A DNA stretch of 58,296 nucleotides, the filler included, from Jimgerdemannia flammicorona (taxonomy: Eukaryota), in assembly GCA_003990765.1 (NCBI GenBank). It is 2 parts of 2 records of this genome, joined end to end, with 100 filler letters (N's around TTAATTAATTAA, not from the genome) between each part and the next. Parts side by side here need not be neighbours in the genome. Positions count along the whole stretch, not along the records: positions 1 to 29,101 come from RBNJ01000518.1; 1 more part is not named here. One strand, 5' to 3'. A program made the translations under genes and the position numbers. The notes under the pieces were generated by a model that saw only the letters and a list, made by a program, of their open reading frames with translations, searched no databases and had not been told where the DNA came from. Within the stretch, counting starts at the first letter, position 1; every line of letters starts with the position of its first letter. Below are positions 12,048 to 50,051 of this stretch, one piece after another.

Positions 12048-13618
12048 TGTTATGTAGTGGTGGTTGAGTCTTTCAAATATGCCAGATTCTCTTCAAGGTG
12101 TATCTCTTAGACTAACTCAAGTTTGTTATAAGCAAGTTCTTATTGGAGTGCCTTCTCAAGGTCTTATAGTCCTCAAACTTCTTATCTTTAACTGTCTTGT
12201 TATCTCTTAGATTGCTTGTAAGAAATTGTATATAAGTGAACTGGAACTTAGAACTGACTTTATTTCAAAGGAAATAAGAGAGGTATTTATATAAAATATA
12301 ATTCAATAGTTGCTAAGATATAGAGCTAAATATAAATTCCAATAACTAAAATAAAATGCCAGGACAGAAAAAACTACTAAGTTCCAGGGTCAGCACTGAT
12401 GGTTGTATAGATTCAGGATGCTGGTATAATTCAGTGTTATATCAGAATATCAGTGCTGGCATTATTCAGTGTTATATCAGAATGCCAGTACTGGCATTAT
12501 TCAGTGTAACTAAGAGACTTAAAGCAGAATGTTCAAGACCATAAGAGTTTCATCATCAGAGGTCAGGATGTCTTTAAAGGAGATGAGGTCAGCAAACATC
12601 TCATCTGTCTTATCATTATCATTACATAAGTTATGTGTTTTGTGTACTTTACATGCTTTATCATATATCTCATGTATGTTGTGTGGGATGATATCATTGC
12701 TGATGACATCATTATATTTGGTAGTGGAGAAATCAGGGGCTCTCTAATCTATAAGATTCTCTTCCACAAAATAGAGAACAAATGTGGGGTCTTGGGGAGG
12801 TCTAACTTGGATGCTTGGGTCTTAGAATACTGAGATCAATCCTTGTAGGAATTGGTCTGGGTTGTCCTAAAGGATAGGATGCCAGTAGTCTTCTACTTCA
12901 TTACTATTGAGAGTGATAGTGGACTGGGCTTCTGTAGCCACCCTGGCTTCTAGTGCATTGATACAGCAGAATAATAGGTCTCTGAAATCTGAGACTCTAA
13001 TATACTCTAAGTTGAGGATCAACCATGGTACATGCCTAAAGATCTGATGAATCTTCTTAGCTGTCCTTATTTTGCATATATCTGTAGGAGTGGCATCTTG
13101 TAGCTCTTAAGTGCTGGTCTGTGGGAACTCCCAGCAGAGAAGGTTTCCTATTTCATACTCCTGTCATATTTGGAGATATTTGGTAGTAATAGTGATTCTT
13201 GTTTCCATTTCATGGCAATAGAGAATATAGTGATAAGGGTCACCAGTATCCAGGTTGACACTAGGAGTCCTTCTTGAGTGGGTCCTCATGGCTCTTCTAA
13301 TGTCTTGGAACATCCTCTCTTTGACTGAGATGCCTTGGTAGTTCCTTAACCTTGAGGTTTAGTGAGCAGCAGACATTTTGTTTGTAGTAAGTCTTTGAGC
13401 TATTTTGGGATTTGGTGGGTCTTGTTAATTGCTGCTACTGCAGTTTCTTGATTCTTCTTTTATATTTCTCAAGATATCATACTGTAGTCACAATAACTCA
13501 CAGTTGGTCATCATTGCTCATCTTGTATGTTATATAATCTTCTTGTACTCCAATCTGGTAGCTTGTAAGGAAAGACTGTCTCCTGTGCTGATGTCATCAT
13601 TCTGGAGTCACCATTACA
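12048..13618 (-). repeat. 3' LTR, family B
   Basis: Equal-length paralogue of 17965-19535; TATA at ~12284-12293 and AATAAA at 12259-12264 (minus strand); 35-bp tandem repeat at ~12420-12508. Confidence 0.92.
12519..13376 (-). pseudogene. LTR(U3)-encoded ~285-aa protein of unknown function, 3' LTR copy
   Basis: ATG at 13376 and stop at 12519; same register as 18436-19293 with point-mutation stops. Confidence 0.7.
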
Positions 13619-13639
13619 TCTTTCTTCTAAATAAGGATC

Positions 13640-13985
13640 TTCTTGAGTATCCTTATTCATTGGTTCAGTTCTGAAAAATTTGCTGATCCTATAACCTCTA
13701 GCAAGGGGTTGAAAAGTGGTGTTTATGGGCTGGCATCTTCTCTTTGTATTTTAGCATGATGGTGAAGGGTCACTTCCTTCATATAGAACAAGGGCCTGAT
13801 TCTGATCATGACCAATCAGTTGATGGTTTGAACTCCTCTAGCTTCAAAAGTCTCATGGATGAGTAGTTGCTAGTGCTGTATCTCTTAGAGAATGGTCCAG
13901 ACAGATAGCCTGCTAGTCACAGGATATGCTGTTATGATTCATGGACTAGAACGTCATTACATTTTGCTTCTCTTGTATAGGTTCA
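13640..13985 (-). pseudogene. Accessory ORF3 relic between integrase and PPT, family B
   Basis: Translates through a frameshift as ..LRDTALATT/IHETFEARGVQTIN*LVMIRIRPLFYMKE..; boundaries approximate. Confidence 0.4.
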
Positions 13986-15532
13986 TAGTACTTCTTGAGT
14001 CTGTTTCTATATACCATAGTAGGCAGTATAGTCTCTAAGATTTTTCTAAGCCAGAAGGTGGTTCCCTTGATATCTTGCATATAGAAGGATTCTTCTCATT
14101 TGGGCTCCAGTTTTTGTAACCATGAGGCTTCTACTATATTTCAATACAGTAGAACCTTTTCTCCAATTCAGATGGGTTCTAGAGTCTTGTGATTCTTTTC
14201 TGCATTCTTTCTTGTCAGCACTTGTGACTAGTGCTCCCAACGAATTGAATCAAATCAAAGGTCCAATTCGATTCAAAGTTCGATTCGAACCTTAATTTTC
14301 AAAATGTAATAACTCGATGAAATCTCATCCAAATTTAACGTATTTTAGCTTGTTAGATTCACCGTATTAATGTGATTCTAACAAGCTAAAGTACGTTAAA
14401 TTTGGATGAGTTTACGCTGAGTTATCGCATTTTGAAAATTAGGATTCGAATCAGACCCTCAATTCGATTCAACTTTTGATTTGATTCGAATTGATTCGAA
14501 TTGAAAAATCCCCAATTCGATTTGACTTGTTTAACCCTCAATTTGATTCGATTCGAATTGATTTGACTCATTTGGGAGCACTACTTGTGACTTGATAATG
14601 TAATCTTCAGCCTTCTTCCTGATTTGATATAGTCTCTGGATTTCTGCATCAACCTGTCTCTAAGTTAGGTCTAGATTCATGGCTGAGGTTCTATCAGAAT
14701 CTTCTTCTCCAAAGAGTAGCTTCCTTGGGGTAAAGTATGTGCTCTGTGATCATATGTCTCATAGGACAGAGAGGGCAGTTGGGAGATAGTTATTCCAATT
14801 CTCATATATCTCTGAGATCTTTGCCAGGATGTTCTTGAGAGTCTTGTTGGTTCTCTCTGTCTGTCCATTTTCTTGAGGGTAGTACATGGTGGTCTTGATG
14901 TGCTGGATTTTGTATTTCTGATATATTATCTCATAGAATCTATTGACAAATTCTATGCCATAGTCTGTTGTGATTTGCTTCAGTATCTTGTAGTGGCAGA
15001 TGATTTCTCAGTACAGAAAGTCAGTTATAGAAAAGGTGTTGGCTTCTTGTAATGCTCCTGCCTCTATCTATTTGGTGAAGAGGTCTACAATAACTATAAT
15101 ATAGTAGTTTCCTGATAGTGTTACTGGTAGTGGTCCAATGATATCCATTGCAATGTTGTGGAAGGAGATAGGCTCAAATCTTGATGACCCAGATATCTGT
15201 TCTTGCTGATCTTATTTCTGTTTTTGGCACTTATTACACCCTTTGACAAATTGGCACAGGTCTTCTTCTATCTTGGACCACCATATGGTTCTTCTTACCT
15301 TGTCATATGTGTTGGTTCCTCCTAAGTATCCTTGCTTGTATACTTTCTTTATTACTTGATACCTTTTATATTTGGGTATTACTAGCTTTCCTCCTTTTCT
15401 GAGTATAGTGTTGTCTAGTTCAAACTGTTTCCAAGTCCAGTTGATGATGGTGATTATCCAGGGTTCAAGGTGGTTGAGCATCTTCCACTACCCAAGATAG
15501 CTGATTAATCTATAGTATAGCTCCTTATTCAT
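13946..15532 (-). pseudogene. Gypsy integrase, family B, interrupted by a MITE
   Basis: MNKELYYRLISYL, zinc-binding region ending CNKC, IAMDIIGPL, ITTDYGIEF and C-terminal KLEPK*EESF...NRLKKY. Confidence 0.85.
14229..14583. mobile_element. hAT-type MITE, 355 bp
   Basis: Terminal inverted repeats TAGTGCTCCCAA / TTGGGAGCACTA; perfect 8-bp TSD CTTGTGAC at 14221-28 and 14584-91; subterminal GATTCGAA repeats; central ~170-bp palindrome. Confidence 0.92.
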
Positions 15533-15562
15533 ATTGAATAGTCTTGATGGGGGTATTTTGGG

Positions 15563-15757
15563 CAGACTGCTTCTGGTTTTGATAATTCCGGCATGGCTTT
15601 CTAGCAACTTGACTCCAATTCCAGTGCTGAGTAGGGTAGTGGTCTGTAGTTCGAGAGTAGTATCTTGAATGCTGGTAAGGTCCATTCCTATGGCTCCTTC
15701 AGTCTTGTATTCTGGGATCTTGGCTTCAGGGTGAAACTTCTTGACCTTGAGGGTGAT
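15563..15757 (-). pseudogene. dut: N-terminal half of a trimeric dUTPase, family B
   Basis: ITLKVKKFHPEAKIPEYKTEGAIGMDL...STGIGVKLLESHAGIIKTRSSL contains motifs 1 and 2; motifs 3-5 are absent. Confidence 0.8.
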
Positions 15758-16099
15758 GTCTGATTCTTATTCCTCCTCATCATCACTGTCAGCTTGAAGC
15801 TCTGGGGGGTGGTCATCTTCTTCAGCTTCCCTTTTTGCTTTGGCAGCTTTTTACTCATATTTCTGTTGGTAGATTTTCCTGACTTCACTGATACAGGATC
15901 AGCAGTCATTCAGGTGTTCAGAGCAGTATATCCTAGTACTATGGGGGCATCTTCCTTGAGGGGCATAGTTATTAATGATCTTGTTGTACTACTGCTCATC
16001 TGTGAGCTTAGGTGTCTTGTTCTTATTCTTGTTTACTGAGTACATGAAGACCTCTGTGTCCTCTTCATCTTCTTCCTCTATATCTGGTAGGACTCCTTT

Positions 16100-17844
16100 G
16101 TGGATATTGATAGAGACTCATACCTTTCTTTCTCTATAGTTGATCTATATCTTCTGGGCATTGAGGTCAATGATGGCCTTGGCCTTATGAAGTCATTGGT
16201 TACCAATGAGAATATCATAGTTAGTGGCACTTATAATAATTACATCTACTGGAATGGTAGCTTCTCCTATTTTGATGAAGACTTCTCAGATTTTGCCAAG
16301 GAGGGTAGCTTATATACTATCTACTGTAACATAGACCATCTTGGTGGACTCTTCAATGTCCCAGCCTAGGCAGTCAATTGCCTTCTTGCTCATGAGGCAT
16401 CCTCCAGCACTGGTATCAATGATGGCATCAAAGATACAATCTTCAATCTGATATAGGGTATAGGCTGATATTTTGTACTAGTCTTTGGATTCTTCACTTG
16501 AGTTTTCGGATTCCTCCTGTGCAATGTGAGCTTCTATAATCTTGTACTCTTGATTCTTAGTGGTAGTTGCAAGTCCAACTCTCAACTGCTGTCTGAAGAC
16601 AGGGACTTCAGCTAGCTGTCCAAAAGTAGCATTGACCTTCTGTTCCTTGAGGTCCTTGTAGATATCATACTGGTGGATCTTAGTCTTGCATAGCTTCTGT
16701 TCCTTCTTACTTTCACTTTCTTCTGAGACTAGAGTAGTGCCTTCAATGATTTGGCAGACAGCTTCATCTAACTCCATATCTTGATCAATCTCCTCAGATT
16801 GAGTCTTACTTTGAATAGTGATAGCTGGGGTCTTCTTTGATCTTCCAACTGGCTTGCTGTTGCTTTTCTTATTATAGGGCTTGGACTGGGTTCTGATACC
16901 TTTAGTAGTAAGGTAGAATTTAAGCTCCTTATAGTATTCTTCATCATCAGTATCACCAATCTCCTCGATGACTACTACATTGATTTATTCTCTAGTCCTG
17001 CTAGTATTGTTTGGTTGGGCTTTGCATCTTGTTTTAGTCATGCAATTCTTTATATTGTGGCCTTCTTATTTATATCTGAAGTATGTAATATTGCATTCTT
17101 CTGTAGCAGCTGCAAATCTCTGCACTGATCTCCTGTTGGCACTTCAGACTTCTCTAATAACATCACTAAGATATATAGTCATCTCAGTGAACTGCTTGGT
17201 GAGTTCCTCCACTGGGTCAGCTTTGGCTGCCTTAGGGATAGGTGGGGTTGATTGTCTGTTTACAACTATAGCAGATATGATACTAGTTGGCTTTGATGGC
17301 TCTATCTTGATGCCAGTTATTTTCTCCATTGAGTGTTCAGCAGGATGTCTGGCAGTCCAATATCTCTGTGTAAAGACCACTTTCTAATCAAGGGTCAGTG
17401 CAGCTGGGGCAGACTGGATTGCTAGTGCAATTTCAGAGTAAACTCCTTTGAGGAAGGTTGAATCCGCTATTTGTTCCTTGAGGGCATATTATAGTCAGCC
17501 AAGATAATCTGGTAGCAGATTCAGGTATAGAATGAGTTGGGATCTTCACTAAGTCCCTGACAGATAGTATTGAGTTGATCCTTGAGAGCTTGCTTGATCT
17601 CTTCAGTATAGTATGTTGTTCTGAGGAAGGCCTTCATATTGACAAGTTTGGCTGTATTATTATTGACAATAGTGGTTATATCAAACTTATCTCTGACAGG
17701 TCCTCTGAGGCTGACTGGTAGAAGAACTAATTGTGCATTCACACCAAGGGCTTGTATAGTGGGGAATTATTCAAAGTCTTCAATGAAGGTCAGGATTGAC
17801 TCTTTAGTAGTATATCTATAGAATGTGGGGAGATGTATTTCCAT
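16100..17844 (-). pseudogene. gag: Gag and aspartic protease, family B
   Basis: MEIHLPTFY..ESILTFIEDFE; decayed CCHC knuckle (YFRYK*EGHNIKNC, ~17040-17085); AIIDTSAGGC (~16398-16427) and YDILIGN. Confidence 0.8.
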
Positions 17845-17964
17845 CTTATCTTAAATTCTTGCAGGGGTGACTATTGTAGTCAGGGTAGTTATTGTGGGGG
17901 TTGTTTATTTTTTAGCTTAAAAGTAAGAGATTTGTCTTGAATCACCAGCCAATAGGTACCAAGT

Positions 17965-19535
17965 TGTCACATAGTGGTAGTTGAGTCTTTCAAATATACC
18001 AGATTCTCTTCAAAGTATATCTCTTAGACTAACTCAAGTTTTTTATAAGCAAGTTCTTATTGAAGTGCCTTTCTAAGGTCTTATAGTCCTCAAACTTCTT
18101 ATCTTTAACTGTCTTGTTATCTCTTAGATTGCTTGTAAGGAATTGTGTATAAGTGAACTAAAACTTAGAACTGACTTTATTTCAAAGGAAATAAGAGAGG
18201 TATTTATATAAAATATAATTCAATGGTTGCTAAGATATAGAGCTAAATATAAATTCCAATAACTAAAATAAAATACCAGGACAGGAAAAACTGCTAAGTT
18301 CTAGGGTTGGTACTGATGGTTGTACAGGTTCATAATGCTGGTATAATTCAGTATCACATCAGAATACTAGTACTGGTATTATTCAGTGTTATATCAGAAT
18401 GCTGGTGCTGGCATTATTCAGTGTAACCAAGGGACTTAGAGCAGAATGTTCAAGACTATAGGGGCTTCATCATCAGAGGTCAGGATGTCTTCGAAGGAGA
18501 TGAGGTCTACAAACATCTCATCTATCTTGTCATTGTTATTATATAGGTTGTGCATTTCACATACTTCACATACTTCATTGTGCATCTTGTGTATATTGCA
18601 TGGGATGATATCATTGTCAATGATATCATTATGTTTGACAGCAAGGAAATCAGGGACTCTCCAATCTATGAGGTTCTCTTCCACAAAATAGGGAACAAAT
18701 GTGGAGTCTTGGGGAGGTCTAACCTGAATACTTGAGCCTTGGAATACTGAGATCAATTCTTGCAGGAATTGGTCTAGGTTGTCCTAAAGGATAGGATGCC
18801 AGTAGTCTTCTACTTCATCACTATTGAGAGTGATAGTGGACTGGGCTTCTGTAGCCACTCTGACTTCTAGTGCATTGATATGGCAGGATGACAGGTCTCT
18901 GAAATCTGAGACTCTAATATACTCCAAGTTGGGGATTGATCATGGTGCATGCCTGAAGATCTGATGAATCTTCTTAGCTGTCCTTATTTTATATATATCT
19001 ATAGGAGTGGCATCTTGTAGCTCTTGAGTGCTGGCCTGTGGGAACTCCTGGTAGAGGAGGTTTTCTATTTCATACTCCTGCTATATTTGGAGGCATTTGG
19101 TAGCAATAGTAATCCTTATTTCCATTTCACAGCAGTAGAGGATATAGTGATAAAGGTCACTAGTACCCAGGTTGATACTAGGAGTCCTTCTTGAGTGGGT
19201 CCTCATGGCTCTTCTGATATCTTAGAACATCCTCTCTTTGACTGAGATACCTTGGTGATTCTTTGACCTTGAGGTTTGGTGAGCAGCAGACATTTTATTT
19301 ATAGTAAGTCTTTGAGCTATTTTGGGATTTAGTGGGTCTTGTTAGTTGCTGTTACTATGGTTTCTTAATTCTTCTTTTATATTTCTCAAGATATCATACT
19401 CTGGTCACAATGACTCACAGTTGGTCATCATTACTTATATTATATACTGTATAATCTTCTTGTGCTCCAATCTGGTAGCTTACAAGGAAAGACTGTCTCC
19501 TGTACTGATATTATCATTTTAGAGTCACTATTACA
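17965..19535 (-). repeat. 5' LTR, family B
   Basis: Paralogue of 12048-13618; adjacent PBS-like sequence. Confidence 0.92.
18436..19293 (-). pseudogene. LTR(U3)-encoded ~285-aa protein of unknown function, 5' LTR copy
   Basis: 286 codons from ATG 19293 to stop 18436, no frameshift and four internal stops of C-to-T type: MSAAHQTS...YEIENLLYQEFP...KIRTAKKIHQIFRHAP*SIPNLEYIRVSDFRDLS...YWHPIL*DNLDQFLQ...NLIDWRVP...EMFVDLISFEDIL. Confidence 0.75.
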
Positions 19536-19629
19536 TTATATAAAAGAATTTAATTTTTAATCTTTTTATATATAATTATTTTTAAATATATATTTTTATA
19601 TTTTAAAATTAATATAATAATATAACAAT

Positions 19630-20520: not shown

Positions 20521-21489
20521 TTATTAGGAAAAAAAATTAGTTTATATTTACTAGTTTATATTTATAGCTATTTGAGTTCATATTATTTAATATAATTTGA
20601 GTTTATAGCTATTTAGTTTATATTACTATATATTTCTATCTATATACTTGTTATTTAGTTTATATAGCTATGTTTTTAAGAAAACAAATCTGTTAGTATC
20701 TATTAGTTCATATCTATAGTTATATAATAACTCTCACTTCTATCCCTCTCTTATCCTTTGGATAATTAGAGAAGTAAGACTATTACTTAGGGACTTAGTA
20801 TACAATGTGTATTAAGAAGCATTCAGTTTGAGGAAACACTTACTTAAAAGTAATTGTAGTAGTAGTGCTTTATCTTTCAAAGGTCTTTCTCTTTTGTTCT
20901 ATCTTTCAAGGGTCTTGTTCTTTGCTATACACAGACTGAATTTATCTTGGAATTCAGATTCAATAGATTTACTTAAGTTTTTGGAGATTTATATATTAGT
21001 CTTAGTTCTGGCAGAAGTTAGCTAGGCTTCTGGAGTTTAGTCAGAAATACTAGTGTCACTTAGATGTCATTACTAAGACTCAGGAGAATATGTATGTGTG
21101 GGGGAGACTTGATTCTTATATTAAGGACTGAACTAAAACTCCTTTATTTCAGATGGAAACTGAGGGTATTTATATAAGTTGGTCTGTGATTTCTGATTAA
21201 GTATATTTGACAACTGTAGTGAGATTTATGATCATGATATCTATTACTAGGCAATGATCAGCATTACTGCAGCACTGGTTACTACAGTGCTAATTACTGT
21301 AGTGCTGATTGCTGTAATGCTATACTGTAGTACCAATTGCTGAGAATAAGCTGAATATCATTTATTCACATTGTTTATATCATTTGTCATTCATAATATT
21401 ATATGTTGTACTCAATCATATGATGACATTATCACTGAATCATGTGATCACTCATCATATCTCATCTGTTCACTTATTCATTCTATTAT

Positions 21490-21858
21490 ATTCTTCTCTC
21501 CTTAGAAATTAACATTCTCATTGATTTGGAAATTGAGAACCAGGAGAGAGAAAGGTAGAGAATCTTTCTCAATATTGTTGCCTTCTTCTTCAGTAGTAAG
21601 GGGGGTAGATATTAATGGCTCACTATCTAGAATGGAGAAGTCAATGAGGTCTACAAATAGTTCTTACATTAGTATAGGTAGTGGTATAGGGGTTCTCCAT
21701 CTGATATAGTTGGCACCATCTAAGTAGAGTTCTTGATCCTTATATCTGGAGATATTCATTCAGATAGGTGGTTCTTCAAAGAGGTCAGAGTGGCCTTGAA
21801 GCCATTGGTCTGGGTTGTCATTCAGAAGGGGGCTCCAGTAGGGCTTGATGTCAGTAGA
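21490..21858 (-). pseudogene. C-terminal part of the LTR-encoded protein, family C
   Basis: STDIKPYWSPLLNDNPDQWLQGHSDLFEEPP..NYIRWRTP..ELFVDLIDFSIL aligns with the family B LTR ORF. Confidence 0.7.
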
Positions 21859-29811: not shown

Positions 29812-29863
<52 letters not shown>

Positions 29864-29922
29864 GTCTCTTGGACTCCGTCTTTATTACCAGTCTATGAAT
29901 AAGTATACAATAACACCCCCCT

Positions 29923-38145: not shown

Positions 38146-38419
38146 TATAACATACTGGCTCAATAGAGATAAATTATAAGATTGGAGATTAATATATATA
38201 GTTTAGCTTGAGCCCCCAGTTACTTTGTTAAAAAGTAACAAAATATTCTATAGTTTCTAGTATTTTTGTTAGTATTTAGTAATATAATAGTCAAGTCTAG
38301 ATATAGTAGTTGATTTGGAAAATTTTCTTATTAAGACAGTTCTTGGGTATAGTGATCATATAATGGTCTCTGTATAGTATAATAGATTTCTTATATAATT
38401 TCTGTATAATAATCTCTGA
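38146..38419 (-). repeat. Family A LTR 3'-end fragment
   Basis: TATAACATACTGGCTCAATAGAG..GAGCCCCCAGTTACTTTG matches the sequence from 51150 onward. Confidence 0.7.
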
Positions 38420-39332
38420 CTAGAGTTACTTAGGTGTTATTACTAAGACTTAAGAGAATATATATATGTAGAGGGAACTTAATTCTTATATCAAGAACTG
38501 AACTAAAACTGTCTTTTTTTCAGATGAAAACTCAGGGATATTTATACAAATTGGTTTATAATTTTTGACTAAGTATAAGTGACTAATTTGATAACTATGG
38601 TGAGATTTGTAATTGTGACCTTTGTCAGATGGTTTGTAATCAGAAATACTTTATAATTAGGACCTTTATTGTTAGACAATAATCAATTACTATAGTACTG
38701 ATTACTGTAGTACTGATTGCTGGAGATAAGCTAGATATTATTTATTTATATCATTTGCATCATTCATTATATTTGTCATTCATATATTATATATCACTAA
38801 TAGTGATATTATTACTAGATTATATAATCACTCATTGTATGTCATGTTTCATCTGTTCATTTATTTACTTATTCTATTATATTCTTTTTACCTTAAAAAT
38901 CAACATCCTCATTAATTCAAAAATTGAAAACTAGAGGAGAGATATCCTCCTCCTCAGTGTTATTGTCTTCTCTATTAGAGGTTGTGGGAGTAGTTACTGT
39001 TGACTTAGTATCAAAGATAGAAAAATCAATGAGATTTACAAATAGTTCTTGAGCACCTAGTATGAGAGTTCTCTATCTGATATAGTTGGGGCCATCTAGG
39101 TAGGAAACTTGCTAGTCATGTTTAAGAATATCTATTCAGGTAGGCAGTCCTTCAAAGAGATCAGAAAGGCCTTAGAGTCATTGGTCTAGATTATTATTCA
39201 GAAGGAGGCTCTAGTAGGATATACAGTTAGTAGACTTGAGTGTGATTCAGAAATAAGCTTCTTGAGTGACCTTGATCTCTAGTTTATCAACCTTGAGAAA
39301 GAAGAAGTTCTGGAAGTCCTTCAGTTATATAT
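38420..39332 (-). repeat. Family C-like LTR, left part, including the C-terminal half of the U3 ORF
   Basis: Colinear with ~21050-21858; translates LKDFQN..KLEIKVTQEA..SY*SLLLNNNLDQ..NYIR*RT..ELFVNLIDFSIF. Confidence 0.8.
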
Positions 39333-40634
39333 TGTGACAAACCAAGACATACCACCCAAATTATACCTTAGCTAAATGACATAAACAATTAGTCAGATAA
39401 TGTGAACACACAACATAGTAACCAGCAACCATTGCTGCAGAAACTGTATAAATAGCAGAACATACCAGATAGGGTCTGTTTACCTGTACAGACTCTGTGC
39501 ATCTGCTATAGATAGCAAATCTATAGTTAGCCATGTAGCAACCAGATAGCAACCACAATGTATAAATTACCCCAAAGACAAGAGTGAATAAACCTCAGTC
39601 CGAAAAGTTGAAGTAAACCAAAGAAGCCTCTAAAGATTGAGCATTGGTCCCTTTTCTCCACTCCAGTCCACTTTCCGATACAAAGATTGATTGGTTCACT
39701 TGCCGGATAAGCCTGAAGAATTCGAGTTTGCTGCCTAAGTTCAAGGAAGAACTTTGCTGCCTTCAGAATTATTGTTATTGGTTTGCTTGTCAGATAAGCC
39801 TGAAGATTTCCACCTAAGAGAAAGCCACCTTGCTTAAGCCAGTTTCTGACACAACTTCACAGTGAATCCATTTGCACAAACAAAGCCAGTCTTTAATGTA
39901 ACTTTACTAAGAGACCCTTTCCCAGAAGCCCACTGATTCTGGAGAATCTGCATCATCTACCATTTTCAAGTTATCTGCCATATTCCCAGTTGAAGCCAAT
40001 TCAGAAAGAATCCATGCCATCTGAGTTAATTTCCAGTTGAAGCCGCCAATTCAGAAGAATCTGCACCATTGTATTCTCAGAAGAACCTGCCAACTTAGGA
40101 AGAATCCATAACATCTGAGTTATCCAAGTTACCTGAGTTCTTGAACTATCTGCCTCTTGTGCCATCCAAGTTATCCATTGTTCCCAGTGAGCTAATATAA
40201 AAGAAACTGCCGCCAGTATTATTCCCAGTAAGGTGAATTCACACCATACAATTCCCAGTGAGCCAAATTGAGTTATCCATCAGAAATTGCATACTTTTGG
40301 AAATCGTTGCACTACACAAGAGATTGCTACATAGAAATCATATACTTTTGGAGACTGCTGTTACCCAGGAAGGAAACCACTTGTGCTACACACAAATTCT
40401 ACTATTTCCAGTTGACCCAAGAAGGAAAGACACAAATTACCACTATACCCAGAGAACCATCCCAATAAGGAAACTGCTCCCAGATATCCAGCTTGACTAT
40501 TATACTACTAAATACTAAGGACTTCAGGAATTATAGAATATTTTGTTGCTTTTGACAAAGTAACTGGGGGCTCAAGTCAAACTACATTAACCCCCAACCT
40601 TGTAATTTGCCTCCATTGAGCCAGGCACATTACA
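39333..40634 (+). repeat. 5' LTR, family A (1302 bp)
   Basis: Paralogue of 48179-49471; TATAAA at 39561 and AATAAA at 39587; many TTCCCAG repeats. Confidence 0.93.
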
Positions 40635-40636
40635 TT

Positions 40637-40654
40637 TGGGGGCTCAACTGGGAA
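40637..40654 (+). promoter_or_regulatory. Primer-binding site, tRNA-Pro type
   Basis: TGGGGGCTCAACTGGGA two nt after the LTR; resembles the MLV tRNA-Pro PBS TGGGGGCTCGTCCGGGAT once CpG decay is allowed for. Confidence 0.8.
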
Positions 40655-40667
40655 GATTTCAAAATTG

Positions 40668-43040
40668 ATGTGACTTTTCAGCTCACAAGAACTCACAGTA
40701 AAACTGGATACATTCAATACAACACCAACCTCTACTACTACAGGAGAACCAGTTATCACTAGCATCTGGACAGGAAGAGAAGTAATTACTTCAAGACTTG
40801 CCAATTATCCAGCATCAGAAGGATCCCAACCAGAACCAGAAGGCAGTATAACCCAAAATCCCCAACTAGATCAACCAGACAATATAGGCAGCCCTGCTAG
40901 AGATTTTGGAGAACTTGTACAAGAACTAGAAGATCTTATCACATGAACCTGAGACCTTACAGCCAGATGCCCCAGATCAGCCCCACCAATTTCACCAATA
41001 GAACCTTTACCACAACCCCTTGCAGAGTCAGAAGTAGCTCCTACAAGAATACCTAGACCTATTCTACTTCATCCAAGGTCTAGAACACCATCCTCAAGAT
41101 ACCCAAGCACCCCTATCTCCAGTGACAGCTCTGAAAGTGAATTGGAATCAGAATTCAAACCAGAACTAGAATTAGAAAGAAGTGATGATGAAATGGCCAC
41201 CTTATTGCCAATCTTTGCAGGATATCCAGAGGAAGACCCCAGAGAATTCCTTGATGGAATCGAAGGAATCGCAGCCCTGAGGAATCTCTCAGATGAAAGA
41301 AAAATTGACATCTACAAAGCTCAGCTCAGAGAACCAGCCAGAGGAATTTTATATCAAATAGCAAATAACTGAGATTCAGAACTAGCAAGACAGATATAAG
41401 CAGCAATGTCTGATGAGCTAGAATATGAGGCCATGGTCCACTGGCTCATCGAAAAGTATGCAGGAAATGAAACCTGCTACAAGGCTCAGGAATCTATCAT
41501 GGGAATGAAGATGAACCTTAGAGAATCACCCAGAGCCTTCTTTACAAGAATCTAGAAGAGAATGTATGCTGCTGGGTTCAATGCCACCAACCAGGACATC
41601 ATCGGTCCAATGATATTCATGAATGGAATTCCCCCAAACATTGCCTAGCATATCTGCACCCTAGGCATCAGAAGGTCTGAAGAGCAAGTAGATGCAGCCC
41701 AAGGATTCTTTAATGTCAGATAAGGAACTACCTGGAGTGACTATAACAGAAAAGAAGAGAAAGAAGACATCCTGGTCAAAGCCCTATAAGGACTCCTTCA
41801 AGGATAAGAAAGTTCTAAAGAAAGAAGGCCAGCCAAGGAAGGAAAGAAGGACAGAAATGAAATCCAGGACCTTAGCTCCAAGTTGGACCAATTGGTTGAA
41901 CAGATTGAAAAACTCACTATATGTGAAAACTGGAGCTACCAAGACAATAGAGGATACCCACCACAGAGGAGCCAAGGTTATCCACTCAGAGATAACAGGG
42001 GTTATCACTAAGAAGAAAGAAGATATCTTGTCCAAGATAGAGCCCAAGTCCAATGCTTCCACTGTGGACAATTTGGACACTATATCACTGAATGTGACAA
42101 CAAAAGAAGTGACTGAAGGGACTCAGAACCACCAAACCAAAGGAATGACACTCAGTACAAGAAGACTGAAGCCCATCCTGTAGAAGATTTTGAGGAAGCA
42201 AGCAACAGCAAAGACTATAGTGACCTAGACTTGTACCCTACCAAGGTTACCTCCTGAAAAACAGTTTACCCAGCAGAGAAAAGGAAGAGACCTGTTGGAA
42301 GGCCATCCAGGAACATCAGCAGAAGAATTATCCAAGAAGAGGATGAAGAACATGAAGAGGAGCAGGTAGAAATACCTCCCTGAACCCCCTCACCTTTTGT
42401 TCCCAAAGCAAATGAGTTGTCACTAGAAGATGAAGAAATGGAATAAGAAGAACAGGAACCTGCTATGCTAAGGCCCAAGAAGAAGTACACTCCAAAGACC
42501 ATACCTAGGGACATTTACAATGAAGCCTGGCAGAAGATTCAAGAGGCCAAGATAGAGGTCCCCCTCCTACAGTTCCTGCAACTGACACCAGCCAGAGTCT
42601 GAAACAAATTGCTGAGAACCACCAGGTCTAGCACTGGCCAAGTCCCAATCCCACAGCAAGAACCAGTTCCCATCCCTATTCAGGCAGCTGAAAGATATGT
42701 TAGCACCTATCTACATGGAGATATTAGAGGACAAAAGGCGAAAATTCTCATAGACACAGGAGCAGCTATCTGTGTCATTGCCAAACAGTTCCTAGACACC
42801 CTTCAATGGCCCATTGATGGACCATCCAATCTCAGCATCATAGTAGCAGATGGAGCCCAAACTCAACCCCTTGGAGAAGTACAAAATATCACCATCTCCC
42901 TTGGACACATTCAGTTCTCCATCCTCAAAGTTATTGTCACTGAAGCTGTCTCCTATGACATAATTCTTGGCACCAACTGGATGAAGGAAATGAATGCAGT
43001 CATCAATATTGGCCAACAAGTTCTCAAGTTTGATTACTAA
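40668..43040 (+). pseudogene. gag: Gag and aspartic protease, family A
   Basis: LPIFAGYPEEDPREFLDGIE; CCHC knuckle CFHCGQFGHYITEC (~42054-42095); ILIDTGAAICVI and YDIILGTNWM. Confidence 0.88.
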
Positions 43041-44360
43041 GACAAGAACTATAGTTAAGGTGACTAGCTATGAGCAATCAAAGAAAAAGAAGAAGGTCAC
43101 TATTCAGGAGGAATATGCTAGCAGTGAGGAGTCTACTACAGAAGAGGAAGAAGAATCCAAAGATGGAAACAATCCCAGACTCAATCCCCAAATTAACCTG
43201 GTGGATGACAGACCAGAAGACAATGTGTGGGCTAAGAATACCATCCCCATCACCATTGGAGCTATTGCAGGAGAAGCCAAAGGATGCCCTACCTACCTCA
43301 AGAGATATAAGTGTCCTGAGCACTCCTCCAAGATCATGGGAACAAGGAAATCACCTGGTATAGCCTGTCCAGAGTGCAGAAGAAAGAAGAAGAAATGCAG
43401 ATATGTTCCAGAAATACCTGCAACCAAGGCTGCAGAAGTACAAGCAATTTGGGACCAAGAATCATCTGAGGAAAAAGAAACTTTTGACCAAAAAGTTCCC
43501 AAACAAGAAATACCTGAAGAAGGAGAGATCTCCAAACTCATTCCCTGGGATGACCCTCACTGGACACCACCTGAGGCCAATGATCCTTGGAATATAGAAG
43601 AAGGACCCAGTACAATCACCATTATTCCAAAGAAAGAAACTCATCAAGAGAAGGCTTTTTGGCTTGGAAGGTGTCCACACCAAATGGTCTTCCACTCTCT
43701 CTGAGACTACTGCTATCAGTGTCATCTATTGGATCAACAAGAAAGACAGAGACCCCAGAGACCAGAACCCCCAACTATACTTATACAGTCAACCACTTTT
43801 CAAGAGGTTACTATAAGGTTACAAAGTCGATTTAGAGGACAAGGCTTCTTCACCCAAACAGAAATATACTCTTTGTCTACCCTTCCCCCAACTTATGATC
43901 AAGATGGGTACCAATTCCCAAGGCAACAAGAGATCAACAGCCAGGAACACCATTCCAAGCAATGGGATATTGCAACTATGGAAGACACTCTGACTGCCAA
44001 GACTGTAGACATCAGAAGATTCACCTCAGTAATGATGTTTCAGTCCATACCTTAAAGAGAGGAGACAATAGAGACCAGATCCAAAAAAGCCAAACCAAGA
44101 AGCCAGGAAGAAGAATCCTCAAGATCTATAATTTGGAAGAAGACATCCTAGCCCTCATCAGACATGCAACCCATCAAGGATGGGCAGAAGATACCACCAA
44201 CTTTATGGAAGCCCTTGACCCTACAGGAAGAAGAGGAATCAACTACCTCTGAGACCCCTCTACTAGAGCCAGATGGCCACACCTCAACCTCAGAGCCTGG
44301 AGACTCTCTGCCAGTGGAGCCTCAGCTCTAGGACAGCCTGAACTCAGCAAGGACACTGCC

Positions 44361-44765
44361 CAGTATGCTCTGCTACATCCTAAGGCCAAACCCCTGACCA
44401 AAGCCCACCCAGAAGATGTAGGGTATGATCTTCACAGTCTGGAGGATGAATCTATCAAGCCTGGAAAAACCTTCATGATCAGAACCAGATTATCCATACA
44501 GCCACCCCAAGGAGCTTATATCCAATTGACCTCAAGGTTTGGACTTGCCAGACAAGGAATAACTGTAGAAGGAGGAACCATCAACTCAGGATATATAGGC
44601 GAAATTAAGGTTATTCTATACAACAGCAGTGCAGAATAGCACTGAATCATTAGAGGACAGAAGATTGCCCAAGCAGTCTTCATGAAGATCAGGACCCTAC
44701 AATTATGGGAAGTATCTGAACTGACTGAAGGAATAAGGCAAGCCAAAGGATTTGGAAGCTCAGAC
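44361..44765 (+). pseudogene. dut: Trimeric dUTPase, family A, between protease and RT
   Basis: KAHPEDVGYDLHS...LTSRFGLA..EGGTINSGYIGEIKVILYN...GQKIAQAVF...RQAKGFGSSD covers motifs 1-5 with two stops; absent from the ORF track. Confidence 0.9.
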
Positions 44766-45172
44766 AAGAAGGAGGTACATCTCCTTCAAGTTAACTACCT
44801 CAAGAAGAATGCTCCCCAACAAGTGTACTAGCAACCAGTCAGACTGCACAAGAATCTCATCCTGGAGCCTGGAGAACAAACAACCTTCGAAATCTTTGCA
44901 CCACCCGACCCCAGAAACCTTTTCTTTGAACTCAAGGAAGATATTCCTCACCTGGACATAGAGGGACACACATTCTCTGACAAGATAAATCCAGTACACT
45001 CCCGAGCAATCAACCAAAGTTGAGAAACCATCATCTTGCTGAAAGGAACCATCATAGGGCATCTGGTGCCTTTTCTCAACCAAACTCATAGGGAGGTTTA
45101 TGAACTAAGCCTATCAGGAAATGGCAAAAGGTCCCAGAAGAAAGGAAAGGCCCCTCTGCGACCCAGGAGACA

Positions 45173-46577
45173 GTGAAGCCTTCCACCAACATTGGAGAAG
45201 AATTAACACCTCAACAACAGCAAAAACTAGTAGAACTTCTCAACAAATATCAAGATATCTTCACTACCGATTATGGTAACCTGCCATACAATCCATCATA
45301 CCACCACAGCATAAATATAGAAAATACAACACCTATCCAGCAGAAACTCTATAGAATACCCCATTACTTGAAAACATTCAAAAAGGAGCACATTCAAGAA
45401 CTCTTAGACAATGGGGTCAACCAGCCCCTAGGCCAGCTCTATACTTATTGTATCAAAGAAAGGAGGATGGAGAATCTGCATGGATTACAGGAAACTCAAT
45501 TCAGTCACTGAAAAGGATGCATATCCTCTGCTCAGAATTGATGACCTCTTAGATCAGTTACAAGATGCCAGATACTTCAGCAGTATGGACCTCTTTGCAG
45601 GATTCCATGAGATCCTCATGGACCCAAAGGACATCCAAAAGACAGCCTTCCTTGCTCTAGGAAAACTGTTTGAGTACCTCTGAATGCCCTTTGGACTTTG
45701 CAATACACCCCCCACCTTCCAGAGAATGATGAATTCAGTCTATGCCCCCTTGATCCACCACTGTCTGATTGTATACATAGATGATTCCAACATCTATTCA
45801 GCAAATTTCGAAGAACACCTGTACCATCTGGAGGAATTCTTCAAGCTCATCCACAAAAACCACCTGAGACTGAATATAAAGAAATGCTACTTTGGGAAAC
45901 AGAAACTTGAATTCCTCAGATTCATAGTCTCTAAAGAAGGAACCCATGCAGACTCAAAGAAAACCAAGAAGATCAACAATTGGCCAGTACCCAAGACTCT
46001 AAAGGAAATACTATCATTCCTGATGCTAGTATCCTACTACAGAAGGTTTATCAAGGACTTTGCCCAAATCGCTGCTCCAATCCAAATCCTTCTCAAGAAA
46101 GGAGTACCATTTAAATGGACAGAATCACAAGAAAAAGCCTTTAAAAGACTCAAGGACTGTATGACTACAGCACCAATCCTTGTGTGCCCCAATCTACAGA
46201 AGCCATTCATCTTGTATATAGATGCTTCCAAAGATGGCCTAGGAGCAGTTCTAGTCTAAGAAGGACCTGACCAACAGTACCATGTGATAGCTTATGCAAG
46301 CAGAGCTACCAATCAGCAGCAGATGAACTATGGTAGTACCAAACTGAAATGTCTTGCAGTCATATGGGTGGTCACCCTGTTCAAGCATTACCTCATCAGA
46401 AAAAGGTTCACCCTGATCACAGACCATATAACCCTCAAATAGTTATTCAACTATAAGGAACCCACCAGAATCCTAGCCCACTGGATCCTTATCCTTCAGG
46501 ATTACAAAATCACCATTATTCACAAAGCAGGAAAAGCCTACAACAATGTTGATGTACTTTCCCACCAGCCCCAATGA
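45173..46577 (+). pseudogene. pol: Reverse transcriptase and RNase H, family A
   Basis: DYRKLN, YPLLRIDDLL, MPFGLCN, VYIDD, FILYIDAS..GLGAVL, LITDH and NNVDVLS. Confidence 0.93.
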
Positions 46578-47639
46578 ACCAGAAGAAGGGTGTCCTGAGG
46601 AACTACACCCTAAAGGAAGCTCCTCAGACCATCAAAGCACAAGAAGATCTCATCTGAAAAGAACACCAGAAAGCCCACCAAGGATAGGCGAATGTAGAAG
46701 AGAAGTTGTAAACAATATACCAACATTGGCCTAATCTTAGAATACAAGTCTGAGACATCATTCAGAGATGTGATATCTGTCAGAAGTACCAAGGAAAGAA
46801 GAACTATCAAGCCCCTTTGCAACTGATTCCCCCACCCACTCACATCTTTCAAAGATGGGGAATAGATGTAATTGGACCTCTACCAGTTACACCAAGAAGA
46901 AACAAATATATTCTTGTATTTGTAGAACATCTGACCAAGTGGCCTGAGGCTTTCCCAATAGAAATCACAGATGCCCTAACCATTGTAGGCCTTCTCCATG
47001 GACTCACACTCAGATATAGACCCCCAGAAGAGCTTATCTCTGACTGAGGCATGGAATTCATCAACAACATAATCACAAGTTATGCCTGAATTCACAAAAT
47101 CCACCTCAAATGAACCACATCATACCACCTCCAGACCAATGGTATGACAGAAAGAATGAATCAGACAATCAAGAAAGGACTTGCTTGAGTCAATTCTACC
47201 AATTGGGACCTCTGCTTACTTGAGATCCTATGGGAAATTCGGAATGCCCCTGCCACCTCAACCAAACAAAAGCCATTTGAGATGATGTTTGCCAAGAAAA
47301 CGAGAACTGCTGACCATGAGAACCTCAGAGATCTTCTCAAAAAGGCAGAACAGTTATGTAATTAGGCCCAAGATCAGATTTTCAACCCAAGAAAGACAAA
47401 AGAAGTACTATGACCAAAGACAGAAGGATCAAGAGATCAAGATTGAAGATCAAGTACTAGTTTGGAGAAGCACAATTGAAACAAACTTTGCTGCCAAACT
47501 GGAGCCCAAATGGGAAGGACCTTATTTTGTACACAATATCAGAGGAACCAGTATCTATTTAAGAAGCATGGATAGATGAACCCTGAGAACACCAGTATAC
47601 ATCAATTGCCTCAAACTATATTTCCCCTCTATACTATGA
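46574..47639 (+). pseudogene. Integrase, family A, in a separate ORF
   Basis: ATG at 46574; H..H..CDIC zinc motif; WGIDVIGPL, LISD*G, QTNGMTERMN and KWEGPY; stop at 47637-39. Confidence 0.9.
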
Positions 47640-48139
47640 GCCAAAGGATTGATCAACACCTCCAGACACTGGTCCCTAGCTCCTTCCAAGCCCTATCAGT
47701 TCCCCTACCCCAATTTGGCCAAGCTAATGGAAACCCCCTTTAGAGAATTCAAGTTCACCAAGAAAATCTTACCTTGGCCAGATGCCTACTATAAGTCCAC
47801 CAACTATAGGCCTATTATGCAATTGGTGAACAATTGCAGAACCTTCCAGCCCCAGAACAGACCTATATCAGAAACACCACAGGTCTGACCAGGAGAGACA
47901 CTACTGCTGCAGACAGACTATATACCATTTATAAATGCTCTAATACAGGTACAGTTCTCCCTGAATGACATTCAAGGAATGAACCTATTACCTATTTGAG
48001 TATCATCAATTCCATTGAAATTCTATTCCCCGAAGAAGAAGAAGAGCCCATAGAATAGAGTGACCCTAGTACAAACAACAAAGATGATGGAACAGATATA
48101 GATGTAGAAGCAGCCTATACCTATTGAGATGATAACTGA
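47636..48139 (+). pseudogene. Accessory ORF3 of unknown function, family A
   Basis: ATG overlaps the integrase stop; MSQRIDQHL..L*AYYAIGEQL..GLTRR/TTAADRLYTIYK.. with an acidic tail; one frameshift is assumed. Confidence 0.55.
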
Positions 48140-48165
48140 AGAATAGTCTGAGACAGACTATCCTT

Positions 48166-48178
48166 CAGTGGGGGCTGA
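48166..48178 (+). promoter_or_regulatory. Polypurine-tract position, family A
   Basis: CAGTGGGGGCTGA directly before the TG of the 3' LTR. Confidence 0.6.
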
Positions 48179-49471: not shown

Positions 49472-49475
49472 ATAT

Positions 49476-50051
49476 AGTTGAGGTTGGGGATTATAAAAGA
49501 TATATAGTATATGATTTGATAGACCTTTTTAGCTAGTCTTTGCTCATATCTATCCAGATTGATCCAGTCTGAGATCTGGTCAGTGGGCAGGCCTTTTGTA
49601 TGCTAAAGAAGTTGGTGGTCAATTTCATATTCATACCAGATTCCCAGGTAGCTAGTAGCAAGGTAGGCCCTTTTGATAATTTTACAGTAATCAAGAATAT
49701 ACTATCCTAGGTCCTGGCTGGTGAGGTTAAGGACCTCAGAGTGGTGGTTTCTTTCTTGGATAGCAATCTAAATATATCTAAAGAGATAGTCAACCTGGCT
49801 TAGGAGGGGCTGGCTACAGCAGACTGTTTGGTAGCATATAGTAGGTATTCTTATCTTATCTTTTCTTTGAGAAGAGGGAAGGAAGATGAAAGTTGCAGTA
49901 TATTCCTGTCCTAGATATTTATACTTATTTACCTATCTGGTATAACTTTATTTTGATCATATTTCTAGAGGAATATATAACCTATTACTGTAAGTAGGAC
50001 ATACGTATGCTGATTATATGAGAGAATATTGATTTTAATAGTATTGTTACA
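49476..50051 (-). repeat. Family C-like LTR, right part, including the N-terminal half of the U3 ORF
   Basis: Translates ..DLG*YILDYCK..YEYEIDHQLL..EQRLAKKVYQII..IPNLNY and joins in frame to 39332 across the ATAT TSD; likely TGTAAC terminus at 50051. Confidence 0.75.

Follow-up and report, generated by a model that had tools for sequence, protein, structure and literature searches.

Accessory genes are commonly regarded as what sets complex retroviruses apart; the usual description of LTR retrotransposons has gag-pol only, with a few extra ORFs in the internal region. To our knowledge, a protein gene inside the LTR itself is otherwise known mainly from a few retroviruses. In MMTV, the sense ORF sag sits in U3. 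Both LTRs therefore contain it, the genomic RNA carries it at its 3′ end, and the LTR is unusually long on its account. Its product, Sag, is a type II membrane glycoprotein. In foamy viruses, the 3′ accessory ORFs tas/bet (bel) start outside the LTR, on its upstream side, and merely extend into U3; their expression is driven by an internal promoter distinct from the LTR start site. The Tas protein, a transactivator, has an acidic activation domain at its C-terminus.

Among retrotransposons, an additional ORF, brtn, was reportedly described by Zhao et al. in 2011 (Virology 417:248) in Boty-like gypsy elements of Botrytis cinerea, and the Cer1 element of C. elegans encodes CERV at a location that we take to be outside the LTR. 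In the portions of the sources available, brtn runs antisense in the stretch that separates pol from the 3′ LTR (PMC7264820, PMC8365987); ORF0 of the plant elements Retrosat2, RIRE3 and RIRE8, ORF1 of Ogre, and the antisense aORFs of Grande and RIRE2 are placed in the internal region (PMC3485330, PMC7264820); and CERV is an LTR retrotransposon accessory protein for gRNA export (PMC10309623). From its described position, antisense and internal, brtn was set aside as an equivalent of the ORF reported here, which is sense and inside the LTR. Three other candidates were also set aside: Retrosat2 ORF0, which is internal in the part of the source available (PMC3485330); the U3 variation of crapaud, for which no ORF is claimed; and the Talaromyces "LTR ORFs", which are polyprotein ORFs. 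In the open-access literature searched, no report places an ORF within an LTR of any fungal retrotransposon, in agreement with the view first taken of this locus that no characterised equivalent is known in fungal gypsy elements.

A reading frame inside the LTRs of element B

The DNA analysed (hereafter, the window) is a stretch of 58,296 nt from the Jimgerdemannia flammicorona assembly GCA_003990765.1, made of two joined parts, with positions 1 to 29,101 coming from RBNJ01000518.1. Its GC content is 20–40% over most of its length, and its mutation pattern is RIP-like (CpA>TpA), which points to a fungal genome. The features discussed below are collected in Table 1.

Table 1. Coordinates of element B, of the U3 ORF and its LTR context, and of related or nested elements in the window.
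Feature	Position	Strand	Details
5′ LTR of element B	17965..19535	-	1571 bp, TG...CA; self-blastn and ends read
3′ LTR of element B	12048..13618	-	1571 bp, TG...CA; self-blastn and ends read
Internal region of element B	13620..17964	-	Pfam on three frames, X at stops; translation
Protease, element B	16139-16453	-	Pfam
dUTPase N-terminal half, element B	15563-15727	-	Pfam
Integrase, element B	14882-15379	-	Pfam: Integrase_H2C2 (E 6e-12), rve
Polypurine tract AGAAGAAAGA	13619..13628	-	Directly precedes 3′ LTR of element B; sequence read
U3 ORF, 5′ LTR copy	18436..19293	-	285 codons + stop, 4 RIP-type premature stops; pseudogene
U3 ORF, 3′ LTR copy	12519..13376	-	285-codon frame, 6 RIP-type premature stops
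TATAAAAG, candidate ORF promoter in U3	19374..19381	-	88 nt upstream of ORF ATG, B 5′ LTR
LTR core of B 5′ LTR	18175..18208	-	TATAAATACC box 18208-18201, GAAATAAAG poly(A) signal 18183-18175
TATA box, B 3′ LTR, downstream of ORF	12291-12284	-	Sequence search
C1, family C LTR piece, 5′-truncated	21049..21858	-	Self-blastn, tblastn, alignment
C1 ORF, C-terminal part	21858-21505	-	tblastn with P0015, E 5e-22
C1 TATAAATA box; GAAATAAAG poly(A) signal	21174-21167; 21150-21142	-	Sequence search
C2 ORF, N-terminal part, family C LTR	49467..49836	-	tblastn: P0015 E 4e-30, P0010 E 1e-35
C2 remainder, family C LTR	38419..39332	-	Self-blastn, tblastn, alignment
C2 ORF, C-terminal part	39332-38896	-	tblastn with P0015, E 5e-12
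C2 TATAAATA box	38546-38539	-	Followed by degenerate poly(A) signal
Element D	39333..49466	+	LTRs 39333-40620 and 48179-49466; self-blastn

Both LTRs of element B end in TGTAAT...GACA. In the window self-blastn, they align without gaps over 1573 nt (12047-13619 vs 17964-19536) at 88.7% identity, and 167 of their 172 differences are transitions, with zero indels across the whole pair. The element is flanked on either side by ATAA, which as a candidate target-site duplication is a weak 4-bp match in flanks of about 80% A+T, and for which a 5-bp reading is mismatched; ACTTGGTACCTATTGG is the sequence just past the 5′ LTR. The gag region is degraded and was recognised by eye, with no Pfam match, and RVT and RNase H domains are absent by Pfam from all three frames of the internal region. 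Element B is an RT-less, non-autonomous derivative. Its gypsy-type assignment, as predicted from the Integrase_H2C2, rve and protease matches, goes with an integrase C-terminus that by eye is presumably GPY/F-like, and the PR-RT-RH-IN order of the gypsy lineage is not seen, RT and RH being missing. Since RT and RNase H are lacking, the U3 gene is known here only from a non-autonomous element and from LTR fragments. The element keeps this gene though its reverse transcriptase is lost.

The initial annotation had placed a sense frame upstream of the TATA box in each 1571-bp LTR of element B, free of indels in the 5′ copy and interrupted by C>T-type stops only. Both copies were recovered, and the four stops of the 5′ copy are all of RIP type; the absence of indels is no evidence of selection, as the entire LTR pair is indel-free. 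The ORF starts 243 nt into the LTR, occupies nt 243–1100 of 1571 and reads in the same direction as PR and IN; a TATAAATA box lies about 230 nt downstream of it, at approximately LTR nt 1328. Over the same 858 nt, the ORF frame holds 4 stops vs 13–27 in the other five frames for the 5′ copy, and 6 vs 12–32 for the 3′ copy. Each stop (TAA, TAG or TGA) differs by a single RIP-type transition from a Q or W codon, and all eight distinct stop positions align with Q or W in intact homologues. Two stops are common to both LTRs: codon 71, which is TAG in one copy and TGA in the other where homologues have W, and codon 170, a TAG in each copy at a place occupied by Q in homologues. When the intact protein P0004 was used as a tblastn query, the 5′ copy was matched by a single HSP covering residues 1–271 (E 1e-112) and the 3′ copy at E 5e-110. 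Against the window's own gag/pol, the U3 protein gave noise alone (E > 0.3). The U3 ORF is inactive in the window, and RIP is the best reading of its inactivation in element B.

Two further copies belong to a second LTR family, C, as also proposed at the outset; this colinear homologue, and with it a frame common to two LTR families, was recovered by tblastn (E 4e-30 to 5e-12), with slightly shifted limits. C1 adjoins the protease of another gag-dUTPase-PR fragment. The C2 ORF, whose N-terminal part carries a frameshift and stops, is split in two by the nested element D. A matching ORF in the LTR of element D itself was ruled out, because 11–22 stops are common to both of its copies in every frame. 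When P0004, P0003 and the L001 ORF served as queries instead, E was 1.7e-16 to 1e-7 for the pieces at 49.8 kb and 21.8 kb, and only 0.07–0.19 for the piece at 39.3 kb. Protein similarity between B and C reaches E 1e-47, yet no B–C DNA match is found by blastn at E 1e-10. By alignment, the two B LTR copies, C1, C2 and contig L001 all retain the core block, and the position of the ORF relative to the TATA/poly(A) core is kept across LTR families whose DNA aligns in short blocks alone.

Intact relatives, selection and protein properties

Three protein searches, counted together with their cluster members, yielded 15 stop-free relatives (P0003–P0017) of 87–342 aa and 24–79% identity to P0004, an intact full-length member; several are partial ORFs, and P0015 is an intact C-type protein. 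The source of all 15 is JGI/ENA environmental contigs; the matches of these searches included nothing from NCBI or UniRef. The first search matched 5 of 515 candidates (E 1e-106 to 1e-32), the second 6 of 1.84 billion cluster representatives at E <= 1e-3, and the third 8 of 4500 candidates; the lengths of the relatives from the second search, 138–342 aa, indicate that there are no fused forms. When metagenomes were scanned for the family, none was found in the first scan (alignment query) and L001 alone in the second; no member was found in the viral contigs scanned. In L001, an open 323-codon ORF is followed by the TATAAATACC/AATAAA core as in B, C1 and C2. Residence in an LTR was read as DNA for this one relative; the remaining database proteins, among them P0012 on a contig of 4848 bp, are assumed to share it. 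Where relatives are complete or nearly so (P0003, P0004, P0012, P0015 and the L001 ORF), the frame stays open for 247–342 codons at 40–79% identity to P0004. Among the sequencing runs listed, parts of element B turned up in two, both of soil-metagenome DNA and neither of RNA; these two are rich in relatives of the element, with 4720 and 844 contigs and all 30 bins covered.

The B 5′ copy and L001 differ at codon positions 1/2/3 by 72/53/114 nt. The corresponding pN is 0.25 and pS 0.71, giving a dN/dS of about 0.14, a rough value since dS is saturated (undefined for the 3′ copy vs L001) and RIP adds noise in the B copies. Transversions, which RIP does not make, number 49/19/41 at the three codon positions in the same comparison, with an excess at the third position and a depletion at the second. 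In contrast, the differences between the two B copies are spread evenly (29/35/38), which fits neutral decay after insertion. The U3 ORF evolved under purifying selection between LTR families.

The family proteins are acidic overall (pI 4.5–4.9). In P0004, the N-terminal 45 aa have a pI of 12.0 and the C-terminal 59 aa a pI of 4.1. The N-terminus of B-type proteins is arginine-rich (10 K+R in 45 residues); this basic character is not conserved in the C-like P0012 (pI 7.8). The acidic C-terminal tail carries the conserved hydrophobic motifs DLIxF and LNF. No hydrophobic segment was detected in the six members tested, whose maximum 19-residue Kyte-Doolittle mean is 0.55–1.05. An AlphaFold model built from 13 sequences is of middling confidence (pTM 0.51, mean pLDDT 57); it places helices over residues 18–185, with most of residues 60–160 at pLDDT 70–88, and a disordered tail. 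An earlier model from seven sequences was poor (pLDDT 37). The best explanation of these data is that active relatives encode a predicted soluble protein of about 250–340 aa, with a conserved helical core and an acidic tail.

Pfam searches returned 0 families at E <= 0.1 for P0001 and P0002 and, for 13 members at E <= 5, two chance-level matches only (ATG5_HBR, 0.088; EF-hand_EFHB_C, 0.15). The PDB sequence profile search gave 0 matches at E <= 10. With the 13-sequence model, the best results were E 1.1 in Foldseek PDB, E 0.22 in the BFVD fold search (none <= 0.001) and Z 4.6 in VIA-align wide (none >= 5); in the ESM Atlas, the best feature score was 0.83 and the best TM 0.33, which is chance level. 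As judged by Pfam, PDB sequences, the ESM Atlas and fold searches with a model of middling confidence, the predicted U3 protein belongs to no described family. Three points raised in the initial annotation can be revisited here. Its argument from protein-level conservation to selection agrees with a dN/dS well under 1; the intact frame that it would look for behind the stops is borne out by open ORFs elsewhere, the stops all being RIP-type and absent from relatives; and the alternative that it named, a described retrotransposon domain or a captured host gene, received no match in the searches made.

Candidate expression and function of the U3 gene

The TATAAAAG octamer found in U3 of the B 5′ LTR also occurs 64 nt before the ATG in the non-RIPped contig L001, at the extreme start of that contig. 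The alignment shows the context ACAAACAAA(ATG) to be conserved, and B and L001 each have an in-frame stop codon before the ATG. In C2, TATAAATA stands 80 nt before the ATG, at 49923-49916. TATA-like words are common in AT-rich, RIP-mutated DNA, so the weight of the candidate promoter is carried by the L001 instance only. A candidate splice signal, CTAAC...TAG, precedes the ATG in the B 5′ LTR; as read from the alignment, L001 lacks it, which speaks neither for nor against a spliced mRNA.

Whether the U3 gene is its own transcription unit, as this arrangement predicts, appears to us an evenly balanced question. A TATA box 64–97 nt before the ATG would initiate its mRNA, which would finish about 250 nt past the stop codon, where the LTR has its poly(A) signal; with its own TATA box and the LTR poly(A) signal, the gene could be expressed from either LTR. 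Alternatively, the full-length transcript, in which the 3′ LTR copy is included, could give rise to a subgenomic RNA by splicing. A more far-reaching version, which we regard as rather unlikely, would make each LTR a complete self-contained gene (TATA box, 250–340-codon ORF, poly(A) signal) for a candidate trans-acting factor. If so, each insertion would bring two expressible copies of this factor, and solo LTRs left by recombination would stay expressed genes. The factor would then serve a community of related LTRs, RT-less elements like B included, and an LTR family could spread its regulator independently of gag-pol.

Taken as a whole, the locus is probably a conserved gene family lying wholly inside U3, outside any described family and dead here, whose protein would serve the retrotransposon as an accessory factor resident in U3. 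For the kind of service, a possible but tentative reading is that the protein works in the nucleus to raise expression of its own element, much as Tas does in foamy viruses. Bulky hydrophobic residues in an acidic tail, joined in the B type by a basic N-terminus, suggest this reading, since activators are usually built this way; charge distribution and analogy are what any transactivator or anti-silencing role would be inferred from.

An accessory gene could instead, as the initial annotation also proposed, counter host genome defence (RNA silencing or quelling, heterochromatin, RIP-linked silencing) rather than activate transcription. Many viral suppressors are orphan proteins with partly disordered acidic tails, as is the U3 protein, and the heavily RIP-mutated, mostly AT-rich landscape implies strong defence pressure on elements. 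However, no known suppressor is similar to it in Pfam or by fold, the window's own copies did fall to RIP, and nothing in the sequence is specific to such a role, which we consider unlikely. We give a low probability, too, to a post-transcriptional action, be it Rev- or CERV-like RNA export, packaging, or help to RT-less elements in borrowing enzymes. The arginine-rich N-terminus of B-type proteins and the abundance in two soil metagenomes of relatives of an RT-less carrier would suit it, and there is a precedent in Cer1, whose gRNA export needs an LTR retrotransposon accessory protein according to the available part of the source (PMC10309623). Against this, the basic N-terminus is weak in P0012, so acidic a protein would be unusual as an RNA binder, and Pfam shows no similarity to Gag, nucleocapsid or Rev-type domains.

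That the ORF is a captured host gene or a passenger, with no role for the element, is improbable. LTR retrotransposons do capture foreign ORFs, as in the bdelloid examples given in the part of the source seen (PMC5408684), and the U3 protein is without assigned function; but no cellular homologue emerged, the six cluster representatives among 1.84 billion all being on short environmental contigs, and a passenger would fit poorly with the fixed place of the ORF relative to the TATA/poly(A) core in barely aligning LTR families and with purifying selection across their divergence. A chance open frame over conserved regulatory LTR DNA, encoding no protein, would agree with window copies full of stops and with expression unseen, but is scarcely credible in view of the long open frames of the relatives, the codon-position bias of substitutions with its low dN/dS, and a B–C match that exists in protein and not in DNA.

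Comparison with known systems

If the accessory-gene reading is right, a new orphan protein family would be defined, one that genome annotation misses, since it masks repeats and RIP destroys the frames. The question would arise whether an LTR, even solo or on an RT-less element, can act as a gene from which a trans-acting factor is expressed. There is a caution as well: long fungal LTRs would not be purely regulatory DNA, and dating or modelling them as neutrally evolving would be risky.

Among the additional ORFs of retrotransposons, brtn is like the U3 ORF in being an extra orphan ORF, with function unassigned, in a gypsy element of a fungus, in its case a filamentous ascomycete. The plant additional ORFs, as the accessible parts of their sources describe them, are likewise lineage-restricted orphans that evolve faster than pol, in elements with long LTRs; they differ in being outside the LTR, either ahead of gag or in the stretch from pol to the 3′ LTR, and are unrelated to the U3 protein as far as Pfam shows. 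CERV can be likened to it, from what is seen of its description, as an accessory protein that is regulatory and non-enzymatic.

The closest parallels are retroviral. Foamy-virus tas/bet is the functional analogy that we favour for the U3 gene, with the difference that the U3 ORF of element B starts 243 nt inside the LTR. Bel/Tas is matched neither in Pfam nor in BFVD (best E 0.22, from a model of middling confidence), which leaves room for a distant relation. As for MMTV sag, no Sag family match was obtained in Pfam with P0001, P0002 and 13 members, the U3 protein has no hydrophobic anchor in six of six members, and the carrier is a gypsy-type retrotransposon without env in a fungal host. The likeness is one of arrangement, a sense ORF within U3, upstream of TATAAATA in the B LTR, and it is this "LTR ORF" arrangement of MMTV sag that would be extended to fungal retrotransposons.

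The U3 reading frame of element B

Element B, a minus-strand gypsy-type element, is bounded by two LTRs whose ends were read (see table); in a self-blastn comparison, 12047-13619 pairs with 17964-19536 at 88.7% identity and without gaps. The polypurine tract AGAAGAAAGA lies immediately upstream of the 3' LTR, and ATAA is present at both flanks. Between the LTRs, Pfam recognizes an aspartic protease, Integrase_H2C2, rve, and a truncated dUTPase that covers positions 2-56 of its 129-position profile. Because it matches neither a reverse transcriptase (RT) nor an RNase H there (13620-17963, minus strand), B is classed, by its domain content, as an RT-less, non-autonomous, gypsy-type element, and it is probably an internal-deletion derivative.

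As proposed in the initial annotation, each LTR contains a frame of 285 codons plus stop, which begins 243 nt inside. It is interrupted by four stops in the 5' copy and six in the 3' copy; the remaining five frames have 12-32 stops over the same 858 nt. The interruptions are damage by repeat-induced point mutation (RIP), since all eight distinct stop positions align with Q or W in database proteins and every stop is a single transition away from CAA/CAG or TGG, in agreement with the C>T-type stops described earlier. Among the first 1537 columns of the LTR alignment, 172 differ, 167 of them by a transition. The base following the 100 C/T differences is A in 51, C in 19, T in 7, and never G, and itself differs in 23; T precedes 32 of the 67 G/A differences. 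This pattern is the CpA>TpA signature of RIP, which suggests a filamentous fungus as the probable host. The absence of indels, also put forward in the initial annotation, holds for the ORF but carries no signal of selection, because the entire LTR pair is indel-free. The window copies of the gene are dead.

Intact relatives and selection

Stop-free relatives were found in environmental data. Searching 5.8 billion proteins by indexed words gave five among 515 candidates (E 1e-106 to 1e-32, 56-70% identity), one of which, P0004, is a full-length open frame of 271 aa with the same start (MPAA.../MSAA...) and end (...LNFLL) as the window frame. A HMMER profile, run exhaustively against 1.84 billion cluster representatives, gave six at E <= 1e-3 (138-342 aa), none fused to other domains, and a second profile search gave eight among 4500 candidates. 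With cluster members included, 15 stop-free proteins are available (P0003-P0017), of which several are incomplete. Their source records are all environmental, from JGI/IMG or ENA; the contigs measure 600-4848 bp, and the proteins are labeled "hypothetical protein" or left blank; none is an NCBI or UniRef entry. In addition, a 1345-bp metagenome contig, L001, carries an open ORF of 323 codons. An intact version of the frame thus exists, and these sequences show that it is a gene.

Selection was assessed over 228 codons shared by the B 5' copy and L001. Differences at codon positions 1/2/3 number 72/53/114, and transversions, which RIP does not make, 49/19/41. With pN 0.25 and pS 0.71, dN/dS is about 0.14, a rough value as dS is saturated; for the B 3' copy, saturation leaves dS undefined. 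The two B copies differ from each other evenly (29/35/38), which fits neutral decay after insertion. These comparisons support the earlier claims of coding and selection.

Sequence related to B occurs in two soil-metagenome runs, in which 4720 and 844 contigs match it at 80-99% likeness, covering 30 of 30 bins. The commonest changes are A>G and T>C, the window copy having A/T where relatives have G/C, which fits a multi-copy family whose window members are RIP-mutated. The full length of B is still covered by such contigs. One bin has a depth of 4.4 and 1.35, vs. about 400 and 50 elsewhere in the two metagenomes; its 250 nt, which translate into short repeated peptide-like units, probably represent an insertion or expansion specific to this copy.

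LTR residence in other families

The window consists of retroelements nested in one another, with a GC content of 20-40% across most of its length except in two LINE copies. Both LINE copies have long open frames (e.g., 740 aa with Exo_endo_phos and RVT_1) and look RIP-free amid AT-rich, RIP-mutated LTR elements. The D-like LTR and D-like pol fragment, each beside a LINE copy, hint that a segment was duplicated earlier or that there is another level of nesting.

Coordinates of features in the window
Feature	Position	Strand	Remark
B 3' LTR	13618->12048	-	1571 bp, TG...CA
B low-depth bin	14297-14546		
B 5' LTR	19535->17965	-	1571 bp, TG...CA
AT-rich stretch	19618-20517		between B 5' LTR and family C piece C1; GC about 20%; direct repeats, about 80% identity: 19618-19723/20187-20285, 19875-20119/20277-20517
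TATAAATACC then (G)AAATAAA(G) within ~20 nt	18175-18208, 12258-12291, 21142-21174, 38513-38546; L001:1218-1249		conserved across LTR families
P0015 matches in family C	49761-49426; 21858-21505; 39324-38896		E 4e-30; 5e-22; 5e-12
gag-dUTPase-PR fragment	25200->21860	-	protease cut by C1 LTR piece
Complete dUTPase domain	22350-22733	-	E 4.7e-24
N runs	29102-29145, 29158-29201		44 each
LINE copies	29826-35454, 52640-58273		GC 52-57%, strongly C-skewed, 75% alike
D-like pol (integrase-region) fragment	35896-38146	-	adjoins LINE copy, flanks C2/D nest
Element D	39333-49466		nested in family C copy C2
D-like LTR, reverse orientation	51150-52640	-	adjoins LINE copy, flanks C2/D nest

The homologues announced for family C were recovered with an independent intact query, P0015, a C-type protein that carries the previously reported motif WNPLLNDNPDQWLQ. 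P0015 also matches the two B copies (E 4e-47 and 1e-40), and blastn of the window against itself finds no B-C match at E 1e-10; the similarity is therefore at the protein level, over divergent DNA, as had been suggested. The C2 ORF has at least one frameshift close to its start and is interrupted at codon ~125 by element D. C1 is cut at 21858, adjoining the protease of another gag-dUTPase-PR fragment. There, the dUTPase has on one side a gag-like region containing a zinc-knuckle remnant and on the other the protease start, a betaretrovirus-like placement in a retrotransposon fragment. The 1288-bp LTR of element D holds no candidate ORF, with 11-22 stops common to both copies in every frame.

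Outside the ORF, TATAAATACC followed by AATAAA occurs ~180 nt beyond it in L001, and the two LTRs of B and the two family C pieces likewise have this block downstream of the ORF. From the stop codon to this block, B and L001 are hardly alignable; the conserved LTR parts are the ORF and the promoter core.

Predicted protein, expression, and known LTR ORFs

By all searches made, the U3 protein appears to represent a new orphan family. Pfam assigns no family to the two window copies and gives two chance-level matches for 13 members at E <= 5; a PDB sequence profile search has no match at E <= 10, and the ESM Atlas nothing above chance (best score 0.83). AlphaFold reached pLDDT 37 with 7 sequences; with 13, it gave pTM 0.51 and pLDDT 70-88 over most of residues 60-160, predicting a helical core (residues 18-185), a small hairpin, and a disordered tail. 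Fold searches returned no match, the best values being E 1.1 with Foldseek PDB, E 0.22 with BFVD, and Z 4.6 with VIA-align wide.

The full-length RNA would run from beyond the 5' LTR's TATA box into the 3' LTR, with the 3' ORF copy near its end. Translation could then proceed from a spliced subgenomic RNA or from an mRNA initiated in U3. We favor the latter, at about an even chance, because the ATG is preceded by a TATA box at a distance of 64 nt in L001, which is not RIP-mutated, 88 nt in B, and 80 nt in C2, the bases directly ahead of the ATG are conserved between B and L001, and the LTR's own AATAAA follows the stop by about 250 nt. As this AATAAA is only ~20 nt downstream of TATAAATA, it probably precedes the point at which the genomic RNA begins and would act only on transcripts that read through it from upstream; an mRNA initiated in U3 would require such a signal. 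Given its closeness to the TATA box, the poly(A) signal is probably part of U3 and used in the 3' LTR only.

Taken as a whole, the protein is acidic, with a pI of 4.5-4.9. B-type members begin with 45 arginine-rich residues (pI 12.0) and end with 59 strongly acidic ones (pI 4.1), among which the hydrophobic motifs DLIxF and LNF are conserved; in the C-like P0012, the N-terminus is only weakly basic. An acidic tail rich in bulky hydrophobic residues, combined in the B type with a basic N-terminus, is a common make-up of transcriptional activators. This composition, and the analogy with foamy-virus Tas, tentatively suggest a positive regulator of element expression; counter-defence, a post-transcriptional role, or a passenger gene share the remaining probability. 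An Env- or Sag-like membrane protein is ruled out, because no member tested has a hydrophobic segment.

Accessory ORFs of LTR retroelements are known as such; within the literature searched, this location and host group are previously undescribed, and full-text searches, mainly of non-subscription journals, found no protein gene reported within a fungal retrotransposon LTR. MMTV sag is the classic ORF in U3, a location it has in common with the B ORF. Overlap with U3 is seen for nef and for the bel genes of foamy viruses. The additional ORFs known from LTR retrotransposons lie in the internal region, as do plant aORFs and Retrosat2 ORF0 (PMC7264820, PMC3485330), and brtn of Botrytis Boty is antisense, between pol and the 3' LTR (PMC7264820, PMC8365987). 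In contrast to these internal-region ORFs, the B ORF resides inside the LTR.
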